DNA of 64,000 nucleotides from an uncultured Candidatus Saccharibacteria bacterium (GCA_964428845.1 CAYRZH010000001.1:204445-268444); one strand, 5' to 3'; positions 6,634 to 64,000 are shown, counted from the first letter of the stretch. The notes: generated by a model not told the origin, from the sequence alone. Numbers and translations are program-made.

Positions 6634-6765
6634 TATTTATGGACACGACGGGAGTTGAACCCGCAGTATTTAGTTGGTAAAACAAAATACCTAAACCGTT
6701 AGCGTGCCCATGACGCGATATACCACTCCGCGCCTAGGCAGACTCTAACAAAGACACATTCAAAT
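6634..6765. repeat. 132-bp direct repeat, copy 1 (tRNA/tmRNA-3'-end-like: reverse strand reads GCGGGTTCAACTCCCGTCGTGTCCA)
   Basis: 130/132 identical to 8095-8226. Contains a T-arm-like GGGTTCAACTCCC and a D-arm-like GAGTGGTATAT. Confidence 0.7.
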
Positions 6766-6901
6766 ATTTATTAAGTATACCCACCCCTCATCCCACCGCC
6801 AATCTTTCTGGATTTTTGTGACAGTTTGGTTCTTGTAGTTAGTGTTCGGTAAACAGTTAATGCAGCTTGTACCCCCCATTTTCCTAGGGTATAATTTCCT
6901 T

Positions 6902-8094: not shown

Positions 8095-8226
8095 TATTTA
8101 TGAACACGACGGGAGTTGAACCCGCAGTATTTAGTTGGTAAAACAAAATACCTAAACCGTTAGCGTGCCCATGACGCGATATACCACTCCGCGTCTAGGC
8201 AGACTCTAACAAAGACACATTCAAAT
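8095..8226. repeat. 132-bp direct repeat, copy 2
   Basis: 130/132 identical to 6634-6765. Followed by a bidirectional terminator CCGCCTCGAAAGGCGG at ~8248-8270. Confidence 0.7.
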
Positions 8227-8517
8227 CTTTTTTAAGAAAAGATAAATACAAAAACCGCCTCGAAAGGCGGCTTTTGCGATATTCTGTCTTACCAACCTCT
8301 GAATTATATATAACTCTCTCTCACTGTCAAAAAAAGACCGCCCCTTCCCGACGGTTTTTCTGGGACCCAAACTCACCAATATGAAAAATATGCAAAAATA
8401 TTCTCTTCCGACAATTGGGGGAAGGTAATTTGACAAATCTGTAAAATAGTGTAAACTCCCGTCCAGAACATTCGTGGCTTGTGGCCACAATAGCCGATCT
8501 TTCAATGGAGAACATGG

Positions 8518-17371: not shown

Positions 17372-17540
17372 ATTTTATTTAGTTAATAAGTTAATTGATT
17401 ATGAAACTAGTATATCAAACGAATATAGTGAATTTCAAAAAAATAGGGGATAAAAATTTTCTGCGCGCCAAAGTGTTTGGTCTGTCAATTTGAGTTGCTC
17501 TGGAAGCTTGGTATACTACTATCAATAAATATCGAAATTA

Positions 17541-17845
17541 TGAAATCACCACTGCCACAAGAGGCGTATCATAGAAATGCTCATATCTATAAAATTCTTG
17601 CCAACTCAAAACGGCTTGAAATCCTAAATCTTCTGAAAAAGGGGGAACTTGGTGTCGAGCAACTGCTGAAAGTCACTAGATTATCCAAGGCAAATCTCTC
17701 CCAACACCTTGCGCTGTTGCGACACAATGGGCTGGTTCAAACAAGACGCGACGGTCTAAATATTTTTTACCGCATAGTTGACCCAAGAATTGTCGAACCT
17801 TGCAAAATTCTTCACAATTTGCGTCACAGACAGCTCGTGGTTTAG
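17541..17845 (+). CDS. ArsR/SmtB-family transcriptional regulator
   Basis: AHIYKILANSKRLEILNLLKKGELGVEQLLKVTRLSKANLSQHLALLRHNGLV wHTH. Promoter-like TTGAGT-16-TATACT upstream. Confidence 0.7.
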
Positions 17846-17857
17846 CCCCAACCCCTT

Positions 17858-18832
17858 ATGTCTAAAAATATTTTTATCACAAGGAAAATTCCCGAGGTTG
17901 CTGAAAAGATGCTTACCGGAAAAGGTTATGTGGTAGATGTAAATCCTCATGACCGAAGCTTGAGCCAGCGAGAACTTGTTCGTTTTCTGCGTAAAAAGCC
18001 CTATGATGCTGTGCTTTCTTTGCTTACCGACCATCTTGATGCCTATGTGTTTGATGCGGCGCCAAGTATAAAAATTTTTGCTAACTACGCTACCGGTTTT
18101 GACAATATCGATATCGCCGAAGCCAAGAAGCGTGGTGTTACGATCACAAATACGCCAGCACCACTTTTATCAGAGTCTGTGGCCGAACACACCATTGCTA
18201 TGATCTTGGCTTTAGCGACCCGAATCGTTGAAGCAGACAGATTTACTCGTCGTGGGAGATACAAAGGCTGGGAGCCTATGGGTTTTGTTGGGGTCGGAGT
18301 TGCAGGCAAGACCGTTGGTCTTGTGGGTGCTGGCCGGATAGGCGAGCGTGTGGCGATCTGTCTAAAGTCTTTTGGTTTGAAGATTATTTACCACGATGTT
18401 TCTCACAATGAAAGAATAGAAAAAGAATGCGGGGCGCAGTATATAAATACGATTGAGGAACTTTTGGCGCAGGCAGACTTTGTTACTTTACATGTTCCAC
18501 TTCTTGACTCTACTAGACACCTTATAAACGAAACACGTCTGCGTATTATGAAACCGACTGCGTTTATAATAAACACTGCCAGAGGGGCGGTTATTGACGA
18601 GTCGGCTCTCGAGAGGGCTTTGAAACAAAAAATCATTTCGGGTGCCGCGCTCGATGTTTTTGAATTCGAGCCGAAAATCACTCCAGGTCTTACTAAGTTG
18701 GATAATGTTATCCTCACACCGCATATTGGCTCGGCCAGTGCTGAAGCAAGGAATCAAATGGCAGAAATGGCTGCGCAGAATATTATAGATTTTTTAGAAG
18801 GGAAAACTCCGCCGAACATTGTGAGTTCTTAG
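17858..18832 (+). CDS. D-isomer-specific 2-hydroxyacid dehydrogenase (glyoxylate/hydroxypyruvate reductase or PGDH-like)
   Basis: GKTVGLVGAGRIGERVA NAD-binding site; catalytic R/E/H pattern (TARGAVID...HIGSA). Confidence 0.75.
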   Translation: MSKNIFITRKIPEVAEKMLTGKGYVVDVNPHDRSLSQRELVRFLRKKPYDAVLSLLTDHLDAYVFDAAPSIKIFANYATGFDNIDIAEAKKRGVTITNTPAPLLSESVAEHTIAMILALATRIVEADRFTRRGRYKGWEPMGFVGVGVAGKTVGLVGAGRIGERVAICLKSFGLKIIYHDVSHNERIEKECGAQYINTIEELLAQADFVTLHVPLLDSTRHLINETRLRIMKPTAFIINTARGAVIDESALERALKQKIISGAALDVFEFEPKITPGLTKLDNVILTPHIGSASAEARNQMAEMAAQNIIDFLEGKTPPNIVSS

Positions 18833-18876
18833 TCCAGATTTCCGAGTTTGTAGATATACACATCGTCGGTCGACAA

Positions 18877-18910
18877 CTGTTTGACAGTATATTTTGTGGA
18901 GCTATACTGC
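18877..18910 (+). promoter_or_regulatory. Promoter TTGACA-16-TATACT of mini-module 1
   Basis: Consensus-like hexamers, preceded by the repeated motif TAGATATACACA. Confidence 0.35.
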
Positions 18911-19009
18911 TCACAGATCAGTACCTGCTGGGCCGTTTTGTTCAGGGGTGTAGCCTCCTGATTGGAAGGATGTTACTTCTCAAAACGATTCAGCGAAAGG
19001 AGGTGATCC

Positions 19010-19162
19010 GTGTTCGACTCGATCGGATGGCCCGCCAAGGTCCCGAAGAGGCGTCATAGGCTCTGTGCGAGTGTCGCCGGCCACGCGATGCCGCGCCGGC
19101 ACGCTCGCCGCCGGAACGCGAACCCCGACACCCTCAACCCTGTGGCCACAACCACGTCCTGA
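19010..19162 (+). CDS. Small Arg-rich ORF 1 (50 aa, GTG start) with KVPKRR motif
   Basis: AAAGGAGG SD 6 nt upstream. Followed by the terminator at 19231. The motif is conserved with ORF 2 despite compensating indels. Confidence 0.3.
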   Translation: MFDSIGWPAKVPKRRHRLCASVAGHAMPRRHARRRNANPDTLNPVATTTS

Positions 19163-19230
19163 CACCGAACAACGCCCAACCAAAAAGAAAGGACCCTCTC
19201 TGCCGCCGATCTCGTGTCGGCGCGCCTTCT

Positions 19231-19265
19231 CCCCCGAGCGCTATCGCGCTCGGGGGATTTTCTTG
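19231..19265 (+). terminator. Rho-independent terminator CCCCCGAGCGC-TATC-GCGCTCGGGGG + ATTTTCTTG
   Basis: Perfect 11-bp GC stem. Confidence 0.65.
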
Positions 19266-19289
19266 TCGAAAAATCTAGATATACACAGC

Positions 19290-19320
19290 AGGGAATTGAC
19301 GCCTTTCTGCAGGAGCGCTA
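19290..19320 (+). promoter_or_regulatory. Promoter TTGACG-17-TACTCT of mini-module 2
   Basis: Preceded by the same TAGATATACACA motif as module 1. Confidence 0.3.
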
Positions 19321-19422
19321 CTCTCTCATGTAGAGAACGTATCGTGTAGGCGAGCGACGCCTAGTACGTTTCGGCCAAGACTGCACGCTTCGGCGTAAAG
19401 TCTAGTAAAAGGAGGATGAGCA

Positions 19423-19500
19423 TTGCAGATCACCCTGCAGATCGCGGCCTCTCTGCCGGACAAGGTTCCCCGAAGACGTCAGATCAGGATGACGGAGTAA
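19423..19500 (+). CDS. Small Arg-rich ORF 2 (25 aa, TTG start) with KVPRRR motif
   Basis: AAAGGAGG SD 7 nt upstream. The alternative ATG at 19416 gives a 43-aa ORF in another frame. Confidence 0.25.
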   Translation: MQITLQIAASLPDKVPRRRQIRMTE

Positions 19501-19609
19501 GCGGTGGACGCGTGGACACAACCTGTGTCCGTGTGGTTCTCGCGTGACCTTCGGTGACTCCTGGTCTCCCCGGTATCAACCGGTTCACACAACGGATGTG
19601 TAACGGCGT

Positions 19610-19655
19610 ACTCACCCCCCTAATGCCTATCGGCTCTTAGGGGGGTTTCATTTTT
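19610..19655 (+). terminator. Rho-independent terminator CCCCCCTA-loop-TAGGGGGG + TTTCATTTTTT
   Basis: GC stem plus T-tract. Confidence 0.55.
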
Positions 19656-19703
19656 TATATATCCAATATAATCTTTATGCAGAACCATGAAAGGAGATGA
19701 AGA

Positions 19704-20291
19704 ATGGCACGAGCGCGAGAAAGTGTGTTGAGGGTCTATGTGGTTCCGGGTGGCAAAATGCCAGAAAGGAAGACCCCCGGAGCAATCGGTTTTGATGCGT
19801 ATCTTCGAGCCGTTGTTTCGCCTACGGAACTCGATCCCGATAACCCAAACCTACGAAAAACTCTTTTTGATTTCAGAGAAAGACCCAAAGAAAAGAAGGT
19901 TAGTCAGCGGGTAAAGAGGGTGGGTGGTGAGCTTGTCTATCGGATGAGGCCGGGTGAATCTGTTCTTGTTGCTATTGGTTTCGTATGTGAAATGCCATTC
20001 CCGATGTTTTATTGGGTGGCCCCAAGAAGTGGTCTTGCCTCGAAGTGGGGTATCACAGTTACAAATGCTCCTGGTACTGTCGACCCCGACTATCGAGGTG
20101 AAGCCGGTGTTCTAGTCTACAACAGGAACAGAACCACTTTCGATCTGAAGCATAGAATGAGAATTGCCCAGGTCATTTTTCAGGAAGCACTTATCCCTAG
20201 GTTGAGTCGGGTAATGAAGTTCGGTGCCCTTTCTGGCACAGAGCGTGGTGTCGGGGGCTTCGGTTCCACAGGTTTGCGTGATAACAGGTAA
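19704..20291 (+). CDS. dUTPase/dCTP-deaminase-family protein (second dUTPase homolog in window), intermediate G+C
   Basis: GTVDPDYRGE and RGVGGFGSTG motifs. Terminator CCGGC-TCTAT-GCCGG-T5 at ~20289-20316. Confidence 0.65.
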   Translation: MARARESVLRVYVVPGGKMPERKTPGAIGFDAYLRAVVSPTELDPDNPNLRKTLFDFRERPKEKKVSQRVKRVGGELVYRMRPGESVLVAIGFVCEMPFPMFYWVAPRSGLASKWGITVTNAPGTVDPDYRGEAGVLVYNRNRTTFDLKHRMRIAQVIFQEALIPRLSRVMKFGALSGTERGVGGFGSTGLRDNR

Positions 20292-22128: not shown

Positions 22129-22253
22129 CGTTTTCTTGTCCACTTTTTTTCGAGATAAATTAATCTACTTTATTAGAATAGAGATATAATGGGGGTGGAA
22201 AGTAAGAGTTCTTTTCTGGTTTGAGCGTACTCGAACAAACAAGAGGAGAGCAC

Positions 22254-22901
22254 ATGTTGGCAGCCCTACCCCCCGTCCCAGCTAGAAGCAATGGACTCCT
22301 GGCGCACACCACAGATGGGAAAGGAGAAATTCAGACAGTTGCGGTAGACATCGAGGGGAAAAATCATCGTGGACAGGTCGACCCTCTTGGTATCCGAGAG
22401 CGGTTTCCGATCCGAGCGAGTGTAAGGCTCGGGGCTACTACGTGTGGAGTTGGCAGTTTCTGCCAGGCTTTGTCACGAGACCCATTCGACATAAGCATTG
22501 GCGCTAACCGACTTCTTAGCCATCCCGGCTTCCAAGTCACCAGGCACGCACTGTCACTTGATTTGGCGATGCCCACCCCAAGAGAGCTTGGGTTTGGGAG
22601 CCCCGTCTGTTGCGAGAGGATCATTGTCAAGGCTTTCGATCATGGCTTGTTGCCGTGTCCTCATGATCTCGGTCCTGAAACGGTTCTCCAATGCAAAGCC
22701 CTACCAAACTGTGTTTGTATGGGTATGTGGCCACTGTACACAAAAGAAGGGGGCTTTATCTTTTGTGTCAGAAGCGTGACCGTGGAGACTGCTTCGCGCA
22801 TCAAGGTACTGCGTGAACTCTGCTGTGGCAATGCCAACCCAGACTCTCTCTGGCCTCTCGATCAGCCCTTTGCTTTCGCTCTTCCGCATCTTCCGACATA
22901 A
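22254..22901 (+). CDS. Cys-rich hypothetical protein on a G+C-rich segment
   Basis: AAGAGGAG SD. CC, CxxxC and CVC clusters. No recognisable family. Confidence 0.3.
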   Translation: MLAALPPVPARSNGLLAHTTDGKGEIQTVAVDIEGKNHRGQVDPLGIRERFPIRASVRLGATTCGVGSFCQALSRDPFDISIGANRLLSHPGFQVTRHALSLDLAMPTPRELGFGSPVCCERIIVKAFDHGLLPCPHDLGPETVLQCKALPNCVCMGMWPLYTKEGGFIFCVRSVTVETASRIKVLRELCCGNANPDSLWPLDQPFAFALPHLPT

Positions 22902-22925
22902 CTAGTTTCCAGTTGTGCTCTGCTA

Positions 22926-22960
22926 CCCCGCACGATCAGTGCGGGGCTTTCTTTTTGGTA
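22926..22960 (+). terminator. Rho-independent terminator CCCCGCAC-GATCA-GTGCGGGG + CTTTCTTTTT
   Basis: Perfect 8-bp GC stem plus T-tract. Confidence 0.65.
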
Positions 22961-27653: not shown

Positions 27654-28232
27654 TCAGGTTCTGCCTGCTACAAGTGCTCGTTCTTCTGGGCTCAGGTCGC
27701 TTTCTTGGGTTCCCGTGCGGAGCTTCTCGAAGACTATTGCTCTGGCGAGACTCTCGGCCTCGGACTCGGCGCCCTTGAAGAATGGGGGTGCTACACGTCC
27801 ACTTCCGTCAGGTACCATCATGTGTACATGAAGATGCTCGATGCTGCCCGCGGATAGTGTCGCATCTCCATCTCGGATCAGAACTCCACAACTCTTGATC
27901 CCGTATTTGGTCAGGATTGTGAGGTAGGCCGTGATAGCGGACGACATTTCGTCTTGCCGAAGTTGCTGTATGCCAGTCACATGTCGTCTTGGTACAATCA
28001 AGAAATGTTTCGCCGTGTGGTCCTCGGGGGGTCTACAGGGCCAGGCCATGCAGTTAGGATCTTCAAAAATTATCTGATTGTAGTCTCTGTCGATTTGACA
28101 GAAAGGACAGCGTCCCGCCAACATCTCTTCGACCCCTCGACAATACTGTGCATATCTACGAGCTCGCGAAAGGCAAGCGAGCTTGTTTCGGTCTGTGATC
28201 CCCGAGATTACCAGGGCTGTTTGTCCATCCAC
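27654..28232 (-). CDS. HIT-family hydrolase/nucleotidyltransferase, G+C-rich xenolog
   Basis: GRCPFCQI and HLHVHMMVPDG histidine triad. Aligns with the adjacent AT-rich HIT gene. Confidence 0.7.
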   Translation of the reverse strand: MDGQTALVISGITDRNKLACLSRARRYAQYCRGVEEMLAGRCPFCQIDRDYNQIIFEDPNCMAWPCRPPEDHTAKHFLIVPRRHVTGIQQLRQDEMSSAITAYLTILTKYGIKSCGVLIRDGDATLSAGSIEHLHVHMMVPDGSGRVAPPFFKGAESEAESLARAIVFEKLRTGTQESDLSPEERALVAGRT

Positions 28233-41226: not shown

Positions 41227-41252
41227 GGCATATTTCTTCTGCAGCGCTACTA

Positions 41253-41282
41253 TTGACTCGAGCACCGTTTGTATGATATAAT
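41253..41282 (+). promoter_or_regulatory. Promoter TTGACT-18-(TG)TATAAT of P3, followed by a conserved structured leader (stem GCACAG..CTGTGC, then GCTTC-TTCG-GAAGC just upstream of the SD)
   Basis: Promoter plus leader are ~85% identical to 42880-42990 upstream of P4. Confidence 0.45.
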
Positions 41283-41366
41283 TTCGCACAGAAAGAGTAT
41301 GGCACTGTGCTGTATTCTAGTTCTCTGAACCGCTTCTTCGGAAGCACAGCAAGAAAGGAAAATGTC

Positions 41367-42071
41367 ATGAGCGCGAAACGCGTGTGTGACATGAGCCCAA
41401 GAAACGTGTGTGACATGAGCTGTGGGGCGATGCATGAGTTTGCATTGGCCCTCGACAAGGCCGGTTTTACCGCTAGTCTTGTACAACAGGTCATCAACTC
41501 GGGTGGCAACAAGCTCGCGAGAGCAATGCGTGCTGCTCTCACAACAGGAGTCGTGGTGGATGACCGGTTCGAACTGGTCGACTCCTTCGATGTCGTTGTG
41601 CCCGACGGCTACGACCACGCAACCCGTTTGGGGACGTTCTGGAGAGAACACGGCGAAGAGTTCGATTGCTACAACCCCTCCATCACCGACGAGAACTACA
41701 GCGGAGCGACAAACAAACTCGTCCCTGGTCGGGGGTTCAGGGTGAAGGTTTTCCAGATCAGGGGGGTCGTGTCATCCGACGATTGCCTGGCTCACCTGCG
41801 TTCGCAGAAGGCTGTACTTGTTGGCGCCCAAGGTGCGAGTCTTGCCTACGAACAGGGCAAGAACATGCTACCAGTCAACCGGTGGTCAGTCTCCTTCGAT
41901 GATAAGGATGCGCTTTTGGAAGACCCCAGTGGCTGGCATTGGGTGCCGGACGTGCTCCGCCACTCGGACGGTAGCTTCAGGTTCAATCTTGGTCAGTTCG
42001 AGTTAAACTGGAACGACGGCTTCTGCCTTCTCTGCTTCTGCGGCTTTGAGCCCGAGTCCTCTGGCGCCTAG
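41367..42071 (+). CDS. Uncharacterized protein, family member P3 (G+C-rich cassette gene)
   Basis: FDVVVPDGYDHAT...YNPSITDENYSGATNKLVPGRGFRVKVFQIRGVVSSDDCLAHL...AVLVGAQGASL...RWSVSFDDKDAL...FCLLCF. Tandem 16-nt duplication near the N-terminus (VCDMS x2). Confidence 0.5.
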   Translation: MSAKRVCDMSPRNVCDMSCGAMHEFALALDKAGFTASLVQQVINSGGNKLARAMRAALTTGVVVDDRFELVDSFDVVVPDGYDHATRLGTFWREHGEEFDCYNPSITDENYSGATNKLVPGRGFRVKVFQIRGVVSSDDCLAHLRSQKAVLVGAQGASLAYEQGKNMLPVNRWSVSFDDKDALLEDPSGWHWVPDVLRHSDGSFRFNLGQFELNWNDGFCLLCFCGFEPESSGA

Positions 42072-42086
42072 GCCGCTCGAAGCCTT

Positions 42087-42800
42087 CTTCGAACCCATAA
42101 CCCTTAGACCCTCAATCCCCAGTTTGCCAAACGGCAGGCTGGGGATTTTCTTTTACGGGAAACCAACATTATCTGTAAAACCTATAAGCCCTTGACTTTT
42201 TATATAATTATGCTAAGATCCAGGCAGAAATCAGCGGCGAAATGGTGTTCAGAGTAGCCACATAAACAAGATCTTTCAAGGGAGAAGTGTCATGAATAGC
42301 CTCTCGTGTCGTCGGGGTTTCTCGTTTGTCGAGCGTGTGATCGTGATCATCATTGCTTGCATCCTGGTATCGATCGTCATTTCGCGCTTCGGGCCCAACG
42401 GCCCGGCGCCGCAGGTGATGGTTACCACCCCGAGCGGTGAGGAGGCGGAAGTCAAGGTCGGCGAGATCATTATGGTGACCTTGAGGAGAGGCAAAGGCCT
42501 CAGCTATCACCTCGAAGAGGGGACCTACCTGATCAGTGCGATCGAGTACAATGGAGTGAACTGGGAAGTTGGTCTCCGCAAACTCGGGAAACCCGGATTC
42601 CCCAGACTCACTTACTTTCTGAGTGACTATGTGTTCAAGAAGGAGACGAGTACCTATATCTGGGTTCAGGTGATCGAACCCACTGATCCGCAGTACAAAG
42701 ATCTCATGGTCGAGTTCGCCAAGGGGGGTGGTAAGTAGGAAGAAGGGAGTGTGACACAAGTCGCCGACCATGGGGTTGGCGATTTTCTTTATCCATCCAT
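42087..42800. repeat. Copy A of a ~715-bp 100%-identical direct repeat (terminator + prepilin-like gene); part of a 1.6-kb tandem duplication
   Basis: Identical to 43684-44398 at an offset of ~1598 bp. Begins with a strong terminator (12-bp stem CCCCAGTTTGCC-AAAC-GGCAGGCTGGGG + ATTTTCTTTT). Confidence 0.85.
42292..42738 (+). CDS. Prepilin-type N-terminal cleavage/methylation-domain protein (pseudopilin-like), copy A
   Basis: RRG|FSFVERVIVIIIACILVSIV matches G-F-x-x-x-E with hydrophobic helix; 148 aa. Confidence 0.5.
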   Translation: MNSLSCRRGFSFVERVIVIIIACILVSIVISRFGPNGPAPQVMVTTPSGEEAEVKVGEIIMVTLRRGKGLSYHLEEGTYLISAIEYNGVNWEVGLRKLGKPGFPRLTYFLSDYVFKKETSTYIWVQVIEPTDPQYKDLMVEFAKGGGK

Positions 42801-42822
42801 TTCTTTATGCCGCACTCTCTTC

Positions 42823-42870
42823 ATGAAATTTAATAAAAAGATACTAAAGAGTGGTTTGCGTCTCATTACT
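42823..42870 (+). pseudogene. Duplicated 5' fragment of the M16 peptidase gene (MKFNKKILKSGLRLIT) left at the duplication junction. It runs in-frame through the P4 promoter/leader.
   Basis: Near-identical to the N-terminus of the intact gene at 44421. Confidence 0.55.
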
Positions 42871-42879
42871 GCGCTACTA

Positions 42880-42909
42880 TTGACTTGTGTACCATTCGTA
42901 TTATATAAT
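42880..42909 (+). promoter_or_regulatory. Promoter TTGACT-18-TATAAT of P4 plus the conserved structured leader
   Basis: Paralogous to 41253-41366. Confidence 0.45.
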
Positions 42910-42990
42910 CTCGCGCAGAAAGAGTATGGCACTGTGCTGTATTCTAGTTCCCTCAAACCGCTTCTTCGGAAGCAAAGGAAGGAAATGCCC

Positions 42991-43698
42991 ATGAGTAGTG
43001 GGAATGTCCGACTGATCACGTCTGGTCAAAAGTTCGAATTAGCGGCGGCGCTCGTCAAGGCGGTTCCGGAATTAGATTCGATGCCATTTGAGACTGCCCG
43101 GCGATGGATCGGCGATCAGAAGGCTATTGCCTGCGCCCTGTCGCAGGCTCTCATGCCGGCCGAGGTCGTTGGGGCACAGAAGACTATCCTCCGTCTGATT
43201 CCCGGTGCCGAGGCTCTCACCCTCGGACCCACCGACGGCCAGGCAACGATCGCAGAGTCAAGGGGCGTCTTCAACAACGTCGACCCCGGCTTCACGACCT
43301 GGGGAACAAACGTCCCCGGAGTCGCCACCGGGGAGATCGCTGTCTCTGTCTACGAATTGGTTGCAGACGCTTCCTTCGAGCAGATGTTCGGGTCGCTCCC
43401 CGCACGCCTCGGCGCGCTCTGTCTCACACAGGCTCAAATCATCAAGTTCGTACTAACACGCCAGCGTCACCTCCGCACCGACGGCTACGCCACGTTCTTC
43501 CTTTTCGAAGTGGGAAGCGAGTTTTTCGTCGCGCACGTGTACCTGCCCGCCGGTGGCGACCCCCATGTGCACTTCTACCGCCTCTCGGGCGCCTTCGGCT
43601 GGCACCGCGAGCACCGCCATCGCATCGTGGTTCCGCAACTCACCCCTGCCCGTCCCGGAATCCTGCCCCCAGCTCGATTCTCTGCTTCGAACCCATAA
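42991..43698 (+). CDS. Uncharacterized protein, divergent family member P4 (G+C-rich cassette gene)
   Basis: SD AAAGGAAGGAA 8 nt upstream. Retains only parts of the family core (FNNVDPGFTTWGTNVPGVATGEIAVSVYEL vs YNPSITDENY...LVPGRGFRVKVFQI). The C-terminus runs into repeat B. Confidence 0.4.
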   Translation: MSSGNVRLITSGQKFELAAALVKAVPELDSMPFETARRWIGDQKAIACALSQALMPAEVVGAQKTILRLIPGAEALTLGPTDGQATIAESRGVFNNVDPGFTTWGTNVPGVATGEIAVSVYELVADASFEQMFGSLPARLGALCLTQAQIIKFVLTRQRHLRTDGYATFFLFEVGSEFFVAHVYLPAGGDPHVHFYRLSGAFGWHREHRHRIVVPQLTPARPGILPPARFSASNP

Positions 43699-44398
43699 CC
43701 TTTAGACCCTCAATCCCCAGTTTGCCAAACGGCAGGCTGGGGATTTTCTTTTACGGGAAACCAACATTATCTGTAAAACCTATAAGCCCTTGACTTTTTA
43801 TATAATTATGCTAAGATCCAGGCAGAAATCAGCGGCGAAATGGTGTTCAGAGTAGCCACATAAACAAGATCTTTCAAGGGAGAAGTGTCATGAATAGCCT
43901 CTCGTGTCGTCGGGGTTTCTCGTTTGTCGAGCGTGTGATCGTGATCATCATTGCTTGCATCCTGGTATCGATCGTCATTTCGCGCTTCGGGCCCAACGGC
44001 CCGGCGCCGCAGGTGATGGTTACCACCCCGAGCGGTGAGGAGGCGGAAGTCAAGGTCGGCGAGATCATTATGGTGACCTTGAGGAGAGGCAAAGGCCTCA
44101 GCTATCACCTCGAAGAGGGGACCTACCTGATCAGTGCGATCGAGTACAATGGAGTGAACTGGGAAGTTGGTCTCCGCAAACTCGGGAAACCCGGATTCCC
44201 CAGACTCACTTACTTTCTGAGTGACTATGTGTTCAAGAAGGAGACGAGTACCTATATCTGGGTTCAGGTGATCGAACCCACTGATCCGCAGTACAAAGAT
44301 CTCATGGTCGAGTTCGCCAAGGGGGGTGGTAAGTAGGAAGAAGGGAGTGTGACACAAGTCGCCGACCATGGGGTTGGCGATTTTCTTTCTCCCTATCT
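43684..44398. repeat. Copy B of the ~715-bp identical direct repeat
   Basis: See copy A. Confidence 0.85.
43890..44336 (+). CDS. Prepilin-like protein, copy B (identical to copy A)
   Basis: Identical ORF translation. Confidence 0.5.
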   Translation: MNSLSCRRGFSFVERVIVIIIACILVSIVISRFGPNGPAPQVMVTTPSGEEAEVKVGEIIMVTLRRGKGLSYHLEEGTYLISAIEYNGVNWEVGLRKLGKPGFPRLTYFLSDYVFKKETSTYIWVQVIEPTDPQYKDLMVEFAKGGGK

Positions 44399-44420
44399 CC
44401 CTTTATGCTACACTCCCTTC

Positions 44421-45689
44421 ATGAAATTTAATAAAAAAACTTTGAAAAGTGGCCTGCGTCTCATTACTGTGCCACTCAAAGACAGTCCTGCTGTCACAGT
44501 ATTGGTGATGGTTGAGGCCGGTTCAAAATATGAGACCAAGGAGATAAATGGACTTTCACATTTCCTCGAGCACATGTGCTTCAAGGGGACAAAGAAACGC
44601 CCCAACTCCATAGACATAAGTCGCGAGCTCGACTCTATCGGTGCCCAATATAATGCATTTACTTCTCAAGAGTACACTGGCTACTATGCGAAGGCTCATC
44701 CCAAGCATTTAGCAAAAATCCTCGACGTTATCTCCGATATGTATCTCGATCCTGTTTTCGATAGTCGTGAGATAGAAAAAGAAAAAGGAGTAATCGTGGA
44801 AGAGATAAATATGTATGAGGATATGCCCCAGCGCCACGTCCACGACATTTTTATGGAGCTTCTGTACGGCGACACTCCTGCTGGTTGGAACATTGCCGGG
44901 ACTCGCCAGCGGGTCAAAGCTATGACCCAGAAACATTTTATTGACTATCGCTCCAAACACTATGTGGGGAAGGGAACTGCGGTGATCGTTGCCGGAAGCT
45001 TCGATGAAAAAAAACTTGCAAAAGATGTCGAAAAAGCTTTTGAGAAAATCAGCACAGCAAAAAAGCATTCGAAGATAAAAGTTGCAGAGAAGCAAAAAGA
45101 ACCGAAAGTATTTATAAAAGACAAAAAGACAGACCAGACCCATCTAGTTCTCGGCGTGCGGGCTTTCGATATTTTCAATAAAGATATTGCCAAGCTGAAG
45201 GTTTTAAGTGCCGTGCTTGGTAGTGGCATGAGCTCGAGGCTATTTCAGAAACTGCGCGACGAAATGGGTGTCGGATATTATGTGAGATCTGGTAGCGACG
45301 AATACACCGACCACGGCTATCTAGCTGTCTCTACGGGCGTCGACAAGTCACGTGTTGTGGAAGTTATTAAAGCTATTCTAGAAGAATTTAGGAGACTCAC
45401 CCGCGAGACCGTTCCACCAGCCGAGCTTGCGAAAGCCAAAGAATATCTTGTCGGTAACATGTATTTGGGCTTGGAATCTTCTGATGCACTCGCCGAATTT
45501 TATGGTTTTCAAGAAATTTTAAAACATAAAAATGAAACTCCCGCCGAAATTGCAAAGCAGATCGAGAAAGTGACAGCACAAGATGTGAAAAATATAGCAA
45601 AAAAAATATTCAAAAATCAGTCTCTAAATCTTGCACTTATCGGTGAGATAAAGGATAAAAAAGATCTTTCCAGATCATTTCGTCTTTAA
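44421..45689 (+). CDS. M16-family zinc metallopeptidase (insulinase/pitrilysin-like)
   Basis: HFLEHMCFKGT inverted zinc-binding motif HxxEH. Confidence 0.8.
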   Translation: MKFNKKTLKSGLRLITVPLKDSPAVTVLVMVEAGSKYETKEINGLSHFLEHMCFKGTKKRPNSIDISRELDSIGAQYNAFTSQEYTGYYAKAHPKHLAKILDVISDMYLDPVFDSREIEKEKGVIVEEINMYEDMPQRHVHDIFMELLYGDTPAGWNIAGTRQRVKAMTQKHFIDYRSKHYVGKGTAVIVAGSFDEKKLAKDVEKAFEKISTAKKHSKIKVAEKQKEPKVFIKDKKTDQTHLVLGVRAFDIFNKDIAKLKVLSAVLGSGMSSRLFQKLRDEMGVGYYVRSGSDEYTDHGYLAVSTGVDKSRVVEVIKAILEEFRRLTRETVPPAELAKAKEYLVGNMYLGLESSDALAEFYGFQEILKHKNETPAEIAKQIEKVTAQDVKNIAKKIFKNQSLNLALIGEIKDKKDLSRSFRL

Positions 45690-50359: not shown

Positions 50360-50376
50360 GTTCAATTTCAAAAAGT

Positions 50377-50583
50377 ATGGAAAAAAAGCAGTGCTTCTTC
50401 ACCCAAAATAATATAAAACACATCGACTATAAGGATGTCGAAATTCTAAAGAAGTTTCTAAATCCTCACGGCCGAATGATCTCCCGAAAGAAAACGGGAG
50501 TGTGTTCCAAATCCCAGCGCCAGTTGGCTGTTGCTGTTAAACAAGCAAGGTTTCTAGGCCTTCTTCCATACGTCGCGAGGTAG
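50377..50583 (+). CDS. rpsR: 30S ribosomal protein S18
   Basis: CFFTQNNIKHIDYKDVEILKKFLNPHGRMISRKKTG. Confidence 0.85.
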   Translation: MEKKQCFFTQNNIKHIDYKDVEILKKFLNPHGRMISRKKTGVCSKSQRQLAVAVKQARFLGLLPYVAR

Positions 50584-50802
50584 GGTTTGTATATCTAACT
50601 TTGAGCTTGTAGGTCTTCGAATAGACACCGAGATGAAGTAGAGGAAGGTGTCGTCGGAGGGGGCTCTCGGAGGCCGCGTAGGCGGCCGAGAGGGAGCAAA
50701 AAGCCAGTAGGCTTTTATACGTACCCCGAAGATGATACCTTCCTCTATTTCGTTTAAAATATCCGTGCGAGGTGAGGTGGCCTATTCGAGTTCGAGGGTC
50801 TC

Positions 50803-51366
50803 TTAGCTAACTCTGTCAGTATACTCGCCGGTTTCTGTATTTATTCTTACTACGTCGCCTTCCTCTACGAACATCGGTACTAGGAGTGTCGCTCCCGTTT
50901 CAAGCTTTACTTGCTTATTGCCACCCTTAACGGTGTCACCACGGACAGCTGGATTGGCCTCGGTCACTTTCAAATCCACTTTTATCGGTAGTTTTACCCC
51001 AATAATTTTTTCATCAAATACCAGTGCCGGTATTACAGAGTTTGCTTTCACGAAACGCATCTGTTCGCCGAGCACGCTTTCTGCAAGCATGAACCGTTTA
51101 CTTGGATCTGAAGTCTCGCAAAACCAGAACTCGCCACGGTTTGTGTAGAGATATTTTATTTCCTTTGTGGAGATGTCGGCTTCTTCTACTTTATCGGACA
51201 CGTGAAACGAGATTTCAGATACTTTTCCTGTCACCAAATTCTTCAGCTTTACAGCATTAACAGGTTTCCGCTGTTGTTTTCTAAAAACGTGTGAGCTTAG
51301 AACCTCGTAAGGTTCTTTTTCGACGACAATATATTTCCGTTCTACAACTTCGTTATATTCGAGCAT
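50803..51366 (-). CDS. efp: Elongation factor P, with the modification loop KPGKG replaced by RKQQRKP
   Basis: Three-domain EF-P. Loop VFRKQQRKPVNAVKLKNLVTG versus E. coli [21 protein letters not shown]. Confidence 0.85.
   Translation of the reverse strand: MLEYNEVVERKYIVVEKEPYEVLSSHVFRKQQRKPVNAVKLKNLVTGKVSEISFHVSDKVEEADISTKEIKYLYTNRGEFWFCETSDPSKRFMLAESVLGEQMRFVKANSVIPALVFDEKIIGVKLPIKVDLKVTEANPAVRGDTVKGGNKQVKLETGATLLVPMFVEEGDVVRINTETGEYTDRVS

Positions 51367-62004: not shown

Positions 62005-64000
<1,996 letters not shown>

Follow-up and report, generated by a model that had tools for sequence, protein, structure and literature searches.

The 870-nt gap between a D-2-hydroxyacid dehydrogenase gene and a dUTPase/dCTP-deaminase-like gene is the site of two tandem units that are real, were missed by annotation and are unsurprising to a specialist. 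Judged from their sequence, they are probably two lineage-specific small-protein genes. We read them as diverged paralogous mini-genes, separately transcribed and encoding small, highly basic peptides, and hold this fuller reading with about even confidence. In each unit, a sigma-70-type promoter, strong in unit 1 and weak in unit 2, precedes a leader of about 93 nt, followed by a strong ribosome-binding site, a short ORF and a terminator. Pairing of the leader with the Shine-Dalgarno sequence (SD) would throttle translation, and a 12-mer upstream of each promoter may bind a factor, so that both units would be switched together. The ORFs would be translated into peptides of 50 and 25 amino acids with a pI of about 12, having in common the basic patch P-x-K-V-P-(K/R)-R-R-(H/Q). 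If this is true, two unannotated small basic proteins are added to a Patescibacteria genome; small proteins are routinely missed in such reduced symbiotic bacteria, and no regulation of them is known.

Genomic setting and anatomy of the two units

The gap lies in a 64-kb window (the whole stretch of DNA that was analysed) of 45% G+C from a Patescibacteria (CPR, Parcubacteria-like) genome. The surroundings are ordinary and metabolic, with nearby genes for ribonucleotide reductase (RNR), an ArsR-family protein at 17477–17845, the dehydrogenase, the dUTPase-like protein and a sulfatase; tRNA genes also lie in the window, as does the beginning of a 23S rRNA gene. The top matches of the flanking proteins are at most 72% identical and come from MAGs labelled Patescibacteria, Saccharibacteria, Nomurabacteria and similar. 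The closest genomes are distant, with 70–72% identity for conserved enzymes. The features of the region, all on the + strand, are:

17858–18832, +: D-2-hydroxyacid dehydrogenase gene, flanking the gap upstream
18851–19275, +: unit 1, the first tandem unit
18851–18862, +: 12-mer TAGATATACACA, copy 1, exact match, the −35 hexamer beginning 30 bp downstream; putative shared cis-regulatory site
18881–18908, +: unit 1 promoter, TTGACA-16-TATACT, from the promoter scan, 11 of 12 matches
18914–19009, +: unit 1 5' leader, about 95 nt, predicted three-way junction; transcription start inferred from the −10 position
18995–19009, +: unit 1 SD, GAAAGGAGGTGATCC, abutting the GTG at 19010, with 6 nt from the GGAGG core to the GTG
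19010–19162, +: ORF1 by ORF translation, GTG start, 50 amino acids, pI 12.0, MFDSIGWPAKVPKRRHRLCASVAGHAMPRRHARRRNANPDTLNPVATTTS
19030–19056, +: common block of unit 1, GCCCGCCAAGGTCCCGAAGAGGCGTCA, encoding PAKVPKRRH
19230–19266, +: unit 1 intrinsic terminator, 12-bp GC-rich stem (19230–19257) with loop TATC and T run, −27.0 kcal/mol
19276–19665, +: unit 2, the second tandem unit
19276–19287, +: 12-mer TAGATATACACA, copy 2, exact match, the −35-like hexamer beginning 20 bp downstream
19296–19324, +: unit 2 promoter-like site, weak, TTGACG-17-TACTCT, found by eye, 8 of 12 matches, below the scan threshold
19408–19415, +: unit 2 SD, AAAGGAGG, with the TTG at 19423 coming 7 nt later
19423–19500, +: ORF2 by ORF translation, TTG start, 25 amino acids, pI 11.5, MQITLQIAASLPDKVPRRRQIRMTE
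19455–19481, +: common block of unit 2, GCCGGACAAGGTTCCCCGAAGACGTCA, encoding PDKVPRRRQ
19614–19657, +: unit 2 intrinsic terminator, arms 19614–19623 and 19637–19646, then TTTCATTTTTT with the T run, −22.8 kcal/mol
19704–20291, +: dUTPase/dCTP-deaminase-like gene, flanking the gap downstream

The initial annotation had described two tandem G+C-rich modules, each running from promoter through leader, SD and ORF to terminator. All the parts are where it placed them, the order is found in both units, and the G+C fraction of the gap is 0.56–0.65 versus 0.45 for the window. Both ORFs, of 50 and 25 amino acids, were recovered with the translations it quoted; the promoter of unit 2, at 8 of 12 matches, is the weaker part of the claim. 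The leader of unit 2 is about 92 nt long. Between stop codon and terminator lie 3' untranslated stretches of 67 nt (unit 1) and 113 nt (unit 2), and the transcripts would measure about 350 and 330 nt, respectively.

Allowing up to one mismatch, the 12-mer TAGATATACACA has four matches in the 64-kb window, with 0.15 expected, and none of 100 shuffles reaches four. Outside the landmarks the units are barely alike, their global alignment giving z = 1.5–2.0 over shuffles. That the 12-mer is exact while its surroundings have diverged almost to randomness points to continuing constraint. The offsets to the −35 element, 30 and 20 bp, differ by one helical turn (10 bp), so that the 12-mer would face the same side of the DNA helix in either unit. 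Most likely it serves both units as a regulatory, protein-binding site that couples their expression. As such it would be a candidate operator in a phylum with almost no known cis-regulatory sites. The 12-mer was also considered as the target-site duplication of a mobile element and rejected as such: there are no terminal inverted repeats, and all that was found near the ends of unit 1 is a 7-nt inverted word (TCGACAA).

The SDs of both units are of the type usual in the genome and ideally spaced. All 15 nt of the unit 1 SD are perfectly complementary to the 3' tail of bacterial 16S rRNA, for which we assumed the canonical anti-SD sequence, the organism's own 16S gene lying outside the window; the runner-up in the window has 10 nt. 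In 1.66 Mb of other loci the longest such complement is 14 nt, and the cases of 13–14 nt there precede ordinary ATG-led genes. The leader of unit 1 is predicted to fold into a three-way junction that is closed by a helix between the 5' end and the SD. In predictions for the full-length RNAs, pairing probabilities in the unit 1 SD are 0.15–0.97 and reach at least 0.67 in four of the six bases; in the unit 2 SD the first base has 0.34 and the other five 0.94–1.0. Taken together, pairing at 0.67–1.0 is predicted for nine of the twelve. With most of the SD predicted to be paired, translation from a very strong ribosome-binding site is probably throttled; according to these models, the leader probably masks the SD partly in each unit.

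A more far-reaching proposal puts the 15-nt complement itself at the centre. The two transcripts would then be regulatory RNAs specific to Patescibacteria and acting on the ribosome, in which the leader-masked complement titrates or parks the 30S subunit when the leader opens. The complement would be degenerate in the second copy, the ORFs would be secondary, and the units would be switched together via the 12-mer. We consider this very improbable.

Coding signals in the ORFs and the common block

One sign that the ORFs are small-protein genes is their codon-position composition. GC1, GC2 and GC3 are 0.61, 0.63 and 0.82 in ORF1 and 0.54, 0.42 and 0.77 in ORF2, the third position being raised in exactly the frames defined by the SDs. 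Measured against open frames of locally shuffled sequence, the excess in GC3 gives p = 0.005 (ORF1) and 0.006 (ORF2), and by Fisher's test p = 0.007 and 0.013, respectively. A comparable excess is seen in about 1% of equal-length windows of 23S rRNA and in no window of the units outside the ORFs. For both ORFs, the log-odds of codon usage favour the ORF frame, where they are positive, over the five others, where they are negative, in a test that is biased by the stop codons in those other frames. Two criteria for small ORFs, a ribosome-binding site at proper spacing before an open frame and codon-position periodicity, gave 6 and 7 nt with 50 and 25 codons for the first and p of about 0.005 per ORF for the second. 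Both start codons are non-ATG (GTG and TTG). An open stretch of 50 codons has a chance of about 0.27 at the local G+C content by our own estimate, so the length of the ORFs carries no weight.

Other G+C-rich ORFs of the window likewise have high GC3 and strong terminators of their own. The most G+C-rich among them (893–1495) encodes a conserved Patescibacteria protein with 174 homologues across Patescibacteria. With such a native gene in the same genome, high G+C is no argument against a native coding sequence, and the idea that the units were imported from a G+C-rich donor is weakened.

The phase-specific rise in G+C runs on for a short distance beyond both stop codons, and the frame of ORF2 is open for 18 further codons past its TAA. 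These observations would fit an origin that the initial annotation had also offered, as decaying remnants of one or two longer G+C-rich genes, tandem-duplicated and then truncated by nonsense or frameshift mutations, in which the periodicity persists without present function. The 67 and 113 nt between stops and terminators, the tandem duplications with diverged bodies elsewhere in the window, the missing homologues and the fact that the ORFs were not called are in line with such an origin. Decay is at odds with the intact state of the unit 1 promoter and of both SDs, both starts and both terminators, as well as with the constraint implied by an exact 12-mer amid diverged sequence. Moreover, comparison in six frames with protein families and with the window's other genes gave no similarity. 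We regard an origin by decay as quite improbable.

Both ORFs contain KVP(K/R)RR, as the initial annotation had noticed, and the motif extends to PAKVPKRRH in ORF1 and PDKVPRRRQ in ORF2. The block encoding it starts at an identical distance from the 12-mer in both units, 179 nt. The best local alignment between the units at the DNA level lies within both ORFs, in frame; four of 300 shuffles reach its score (p about 0.013), and we estimate the chance of the best alignment falling in both ORFs in frame at about 0.03. The 20-mers around the motif align without gaps, with 14 of 20 positions identical and the reading frame kept. An alternative alignment with +2/−2 gaps has 18 of 18 positions identical, the identical 8-mer CCCGAAGA then being read in different frames in the two units. 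The frame-compensating +1/−1 indels described before are thus wrong: a gap-free alignment works, and the gapped form has +2/−2.

In the ungapped 27-nt alignment there are nine differences, six of which are at the third codon position, and four codons differ synonymously. When a similar number of substitutions is placed at random, an equal or better peptide score is obtained in 0.3% of trials (P = 0.003), a test that has two paralogues to work with and assumes the ungapped alignment, the +2/−2 one being equally possible. Peptide similarity alone, over all nine frame pairs, is at chance level (95 of 300 shuffles reach it), and the likeness between the peptides, which differ two-fold in length, is confined to nine residues. 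Selection on the peptide rather than on the RNA, as first argued from the indels, loses that argument and gains others, namely GC3, the in-frame block, the placement of substitutions and the unstructured ORFs.

ORF1 has eight arginines in 50 residues (16%), and by our own arithmetic about 13% arginine codons would be expected from the local base composition. The arginine share is about what the G+C content predicts and is no signal, so that 'Arg-rich' falls away as a notable trait of these ORFs. The stretch RRHARRR in ORF1 resembles the arginine-rich motif of the lambda and P22 N proteins, and likewise fits the G+C content. By analogy with other arginine-rich peptides, the basic patch might bind RNA or DNA, a suggestion we find doubtful. 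A boxB-type hairpin with a GAAGA loop can be drawn by eye in unit 1 only, with a mismatch, and none can be drawn in unit 2. Both peptides are hydrophilic, with GRAVY values of −0.79 (ORF1) and −0.48 (ORF2) and top 11-residue Kyte-Doolittle windows of 1.1 and 1.2.

Separately, the motif was considered as a relic of 16S rRNA helix 45 read backwards. Reverse-complemented, helix 45 of E. coli agrees with the common block in nine of ten bases. The idea was dropped because the Bacillus sequence differs and the distance to the SD is not collinear.

RNA structure and regulatory readings

Alternatively, each unit may be a small RNA gene, about 350 nt long for unit 1 and 330 nt for unit 2, that is non-coding or has a dual function; the common block and the C- and CU-rich stretches would then be sites acting at the RNA level. 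These sites could pair with target mRNAs at their purine-rich ribosome-binding sites, and the SD-like sequence would be a structural part. We consider such genes unlikely, if still credible. The units are complete from promoter to terminator and have long untranslated parts, no gene was called here in the source annotation, and the SDs are predicted to pair with CCUCC-like sequences of the same RNA. The 3' half of unit 1 is C- and A-rich and mostly unpaired in the prediction, and the gapped alignment of the block, with 18 of 18 positions identical and CCCGAAGA in different frames, would suit a conserved RNA site.

Fold z-scores of −2.8 (unit 1) and −3.6 (unit 2) for the whole units, and of −2.7 for the unit 1 leader, also speak for RNA genes, but the minus strand scores equally well, and segment by segment the whole-unit values trace back to the terminators and the leader of unit 1, the only parts that fold better than shuffles. 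The unit 2 leader has z = −0.8, the ORF bodies −0.5 and +0.6 and the 3' parts −0.9 and 0.0 (unit 1 and unit 2, respectively), no better than shuffles. The predicted overall architectures differ between the units, and RNAalifold found no helix common to both around the block, leaving the units without a common structure either overall or at the block. Rfam 15 gave no match above the gathering threshold in 18850–19660; at E-values up to 10 there were terminator-like chance matches only, the best with 21.7 bits for a threshold of 49.5. ARAGORN found no tmRNA or tRNA in the gap, and an inspection by eye for the conserved cores of RNase P, SRP and tmRNA gave no match. A model with RNA alone leaves two things unexplained: the frame-specific GC3 excess in both ORFs and the 15-nt SD directly before a start codon.

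Dual-function small RNAs such as RNAIII of Staphylococcus, which encodes hld, and SR1 of Bacillus, which encodes SR1P, are similar to the units in being transcripts of a few hundred nucleotides with an ORF of 25–50 codons and long, C-rich non-coding parts. The units differ in having no sequence or structural relation to them, and in 3' parts that are structured no more than chance.

Two of the functions offered in the initial annotation, leader peptides and toxin-like peptides, connect the small ORFs with regulatory loci of known types. As leader-peptide transcription attenuators, the units would act in series on the dUTPase-like gene: short ORFs with runs of arginine codons precede strong terminators on the same strand, directly 5' of that gene. 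Attenuation would call for an antiterminator, and no such pairing was found, the best competing duplexes having −12.4 and −10.1 kcal/mol versus −27.0 and −22.8 kcal/mol for the terminators. A TATAAT, at a site that the promoter scan did not list, and an SD lie after terminator 2 and before the start of the dUTPase-like gene, and may serve that gene separately. The arginine content is what base composition predicts, and relatives have the dUTPase-like gene without such a leader.

Points of resemblance to type I toxin mRNAs (hok, ldr, zor and aapA) are the arrangement in tandem, the transcript length of about 350 nt and the predicted pairing of the SD with the 5' end. SD-masking 5' leaders are typical of such mRNAs, and tandem copies are frequent at loci of these kinds. 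The units differ in that their peptides are hydrophilic and basic, with no membrane helix (top hydropathy windows 1.1–1.2), and in that no promoter for an antisense RNA was found; the promoter and terminator scan of the minus strand of the units gave no promoter-like or terminator-like site. A hydrophobic segment and an antisense promoter, by which type I toxin-antitoxin pairs are defined, are thus both missing. Even taken together, attenuators and type I toxin mRNAs are extremely improbable, and neither function could be upheld.

Search for relatives and comparison with small-protein genes

Relatives of the units were sought at the protein and DNA levels. The 50-residue peptide has no match at E ≤ 0.001 among 1.84 billion protein representatives, and Pfam, PHROGs, NCBIfam and the PDB gave nothing for either peptide. 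In viral contigs, the peptide search found no homologue and searches with two DNA patterns gave chance matches only, as did a DNA search of phage and plasmid records. In metagenome contigs, a strict pattern (12-mer plus motif), built like the other DNA patterns from features common to both units, had no match; a looser motif had 74, about the chance expectation, which were unrelated, mostly in G+C-rich contexts and without extended similarity. The expression KVP[KR]RR, searched in six frames of 1.7 Mb, gave one chance match only, and the window contains no further copies of the units. In relatives, the dUTPase-like gene (14 genomes) and the dehydrogenase gene (four loci) have other neighbours and no such element, and BLASTN and nhmmer comparisons of the units with those loci gave chance words only.

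ORF1 and ORF2 are absent from a collection of 15 billion proteins in which the neighbouring genes are present, from which it follows that the source annotation did not call them. Conservation in a relative, by which the initial annotation had proposed to judge its ORFs, was not seen: no homologue was found in any collection searched. As the lineage is poorly sampled, the absence of relatives is weak evidence. As neither the peptides nor the DNA gave a homologue in these collections, and as synteny is not kept in relatives, function can be approached only by inference, and the question of RNA or protein has to be answered from the sequence itself. Tests intrinsic to it, namely codon-position G+C, placement of substitutions between paralogues and fold z-scores of segments, can separate coding sequence from RNA in the absence of relatives.

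The units behave as ordinary orphan small-protein genes and belong to no curated RNA or protein family. Like other orphan small-ORF genes missed by gene callers, they have SD-led frames (25 and 50 codons), a promoter and a terminator of their own, no called gene and no database homologue. They differ from the usual cases in being two diverged tandem paralogues, in the exact upstream 12-mer and in the unusual length of their leaders (about 93 nt) and 3' parts. On their own, having no homologues and no functional link to their neighbours, the units change no open question.

Phage morons are autonomous cassettes of promoter, ORF and terminator with a base composition unlike that of their neighbours. 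The units are similar in being self-contained, between unrelated genes and of deviant G+C (0.56–0.65 versus 0.45), with the promoter of unit 2 being weak. They differ in lying outside any prophage, among metabolic neighbours and with rRNA and tRNA genes in the same window, and in having no PHROG or phage DNA match. Another G+C-rich gene of the genome is a native Patescibacteria gene, so deviant G+C need not mean import. The SD of unit 1 equals in length the longest one in the phage contigs.

Additional copies of the 12-mer

The 12-mer that stands exactly at 18851-18862 and 19276-19287, upstream of the predicted promoters of the two tandem, probable small-ORF mini-genes (units 1 and 2), has a third, degenerate copy, TATATATCCAAT, identified by eye at 19656-19667. 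It matches at 8 of 12 positions, lies immediately 3' of terminator 2 (the intrinsic terminator of unit 2) and, also by eye, overlaps the -10 region of the downstream dUTPase-like gene. The presence of this copy would be consistent with units 1 and 2 having arisen through unequal crossing-over at short repeats.

Two copies with one mismatch were also found. One, TAGATATACAAA, is located at 50586-50597 in a 443-nt gap on the minus strand (50360-50803), with convergent genes on either side; this gap also contains GC-rich stretches able to form hairpins. The other, at 28147-28158, lies within a HIT-family ORF, at its 5' end.

Other repeated regions

A 142-nt direct repeat (6634-6775 and 8095-8236, 97% identity) encloses two small AT-rich ORFs. 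At 41244-44476, there is a tandem pair of units of about 1.6 kb each, the right parts of which (42075-42878 versus 43672-44476) are 97% identical across 805 nt and the left ends (41244-41356 versus 42871-42984) 88% identical. The GC-rich ORFs between the repeated ends, of 254 and 315 amino acids, resemble each other only at the N-terminus and have no Pfam match. After each unit come a 14-bp-stem terminator, identical in both, and a conserved minus-strand ORF of 187 aa. The region resembles a cassette that has been duplicated and whose body varies.

Another gap at 22150-22960

This gap, of about 800 nt, contains the following features:

22185-22190, TATAAT
22221-22901, candidate ORF of 226 amino acids with a TTG start
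22926-22946, terminator

The candidate ORF was not found in a collection of 15 billion proteins, has no match in Pfam or Rfam and lacks an excess of G+C at third codon positions (GC3); its fold z-score, relative to shuffled sequence, is just -1.3.

Base composition and rRNA genes

The ORF at 893-1495 has the highest G+C of any in the window (G+C 0.61, GC3 0.73). Its product, a hypothetical protein with no Pfam match, is conserved: 174 homologues are spread over the Patescibacteria. Strong gene-to-gene G+C differences therefore seem native to this genome.

The rRNA genes appear to be unlinked at this locus: a 23S rRNA gene starts at 62005 (region 62005-64000), and directly upstream of it are protein-coding ORFs rather than a 16S gene.
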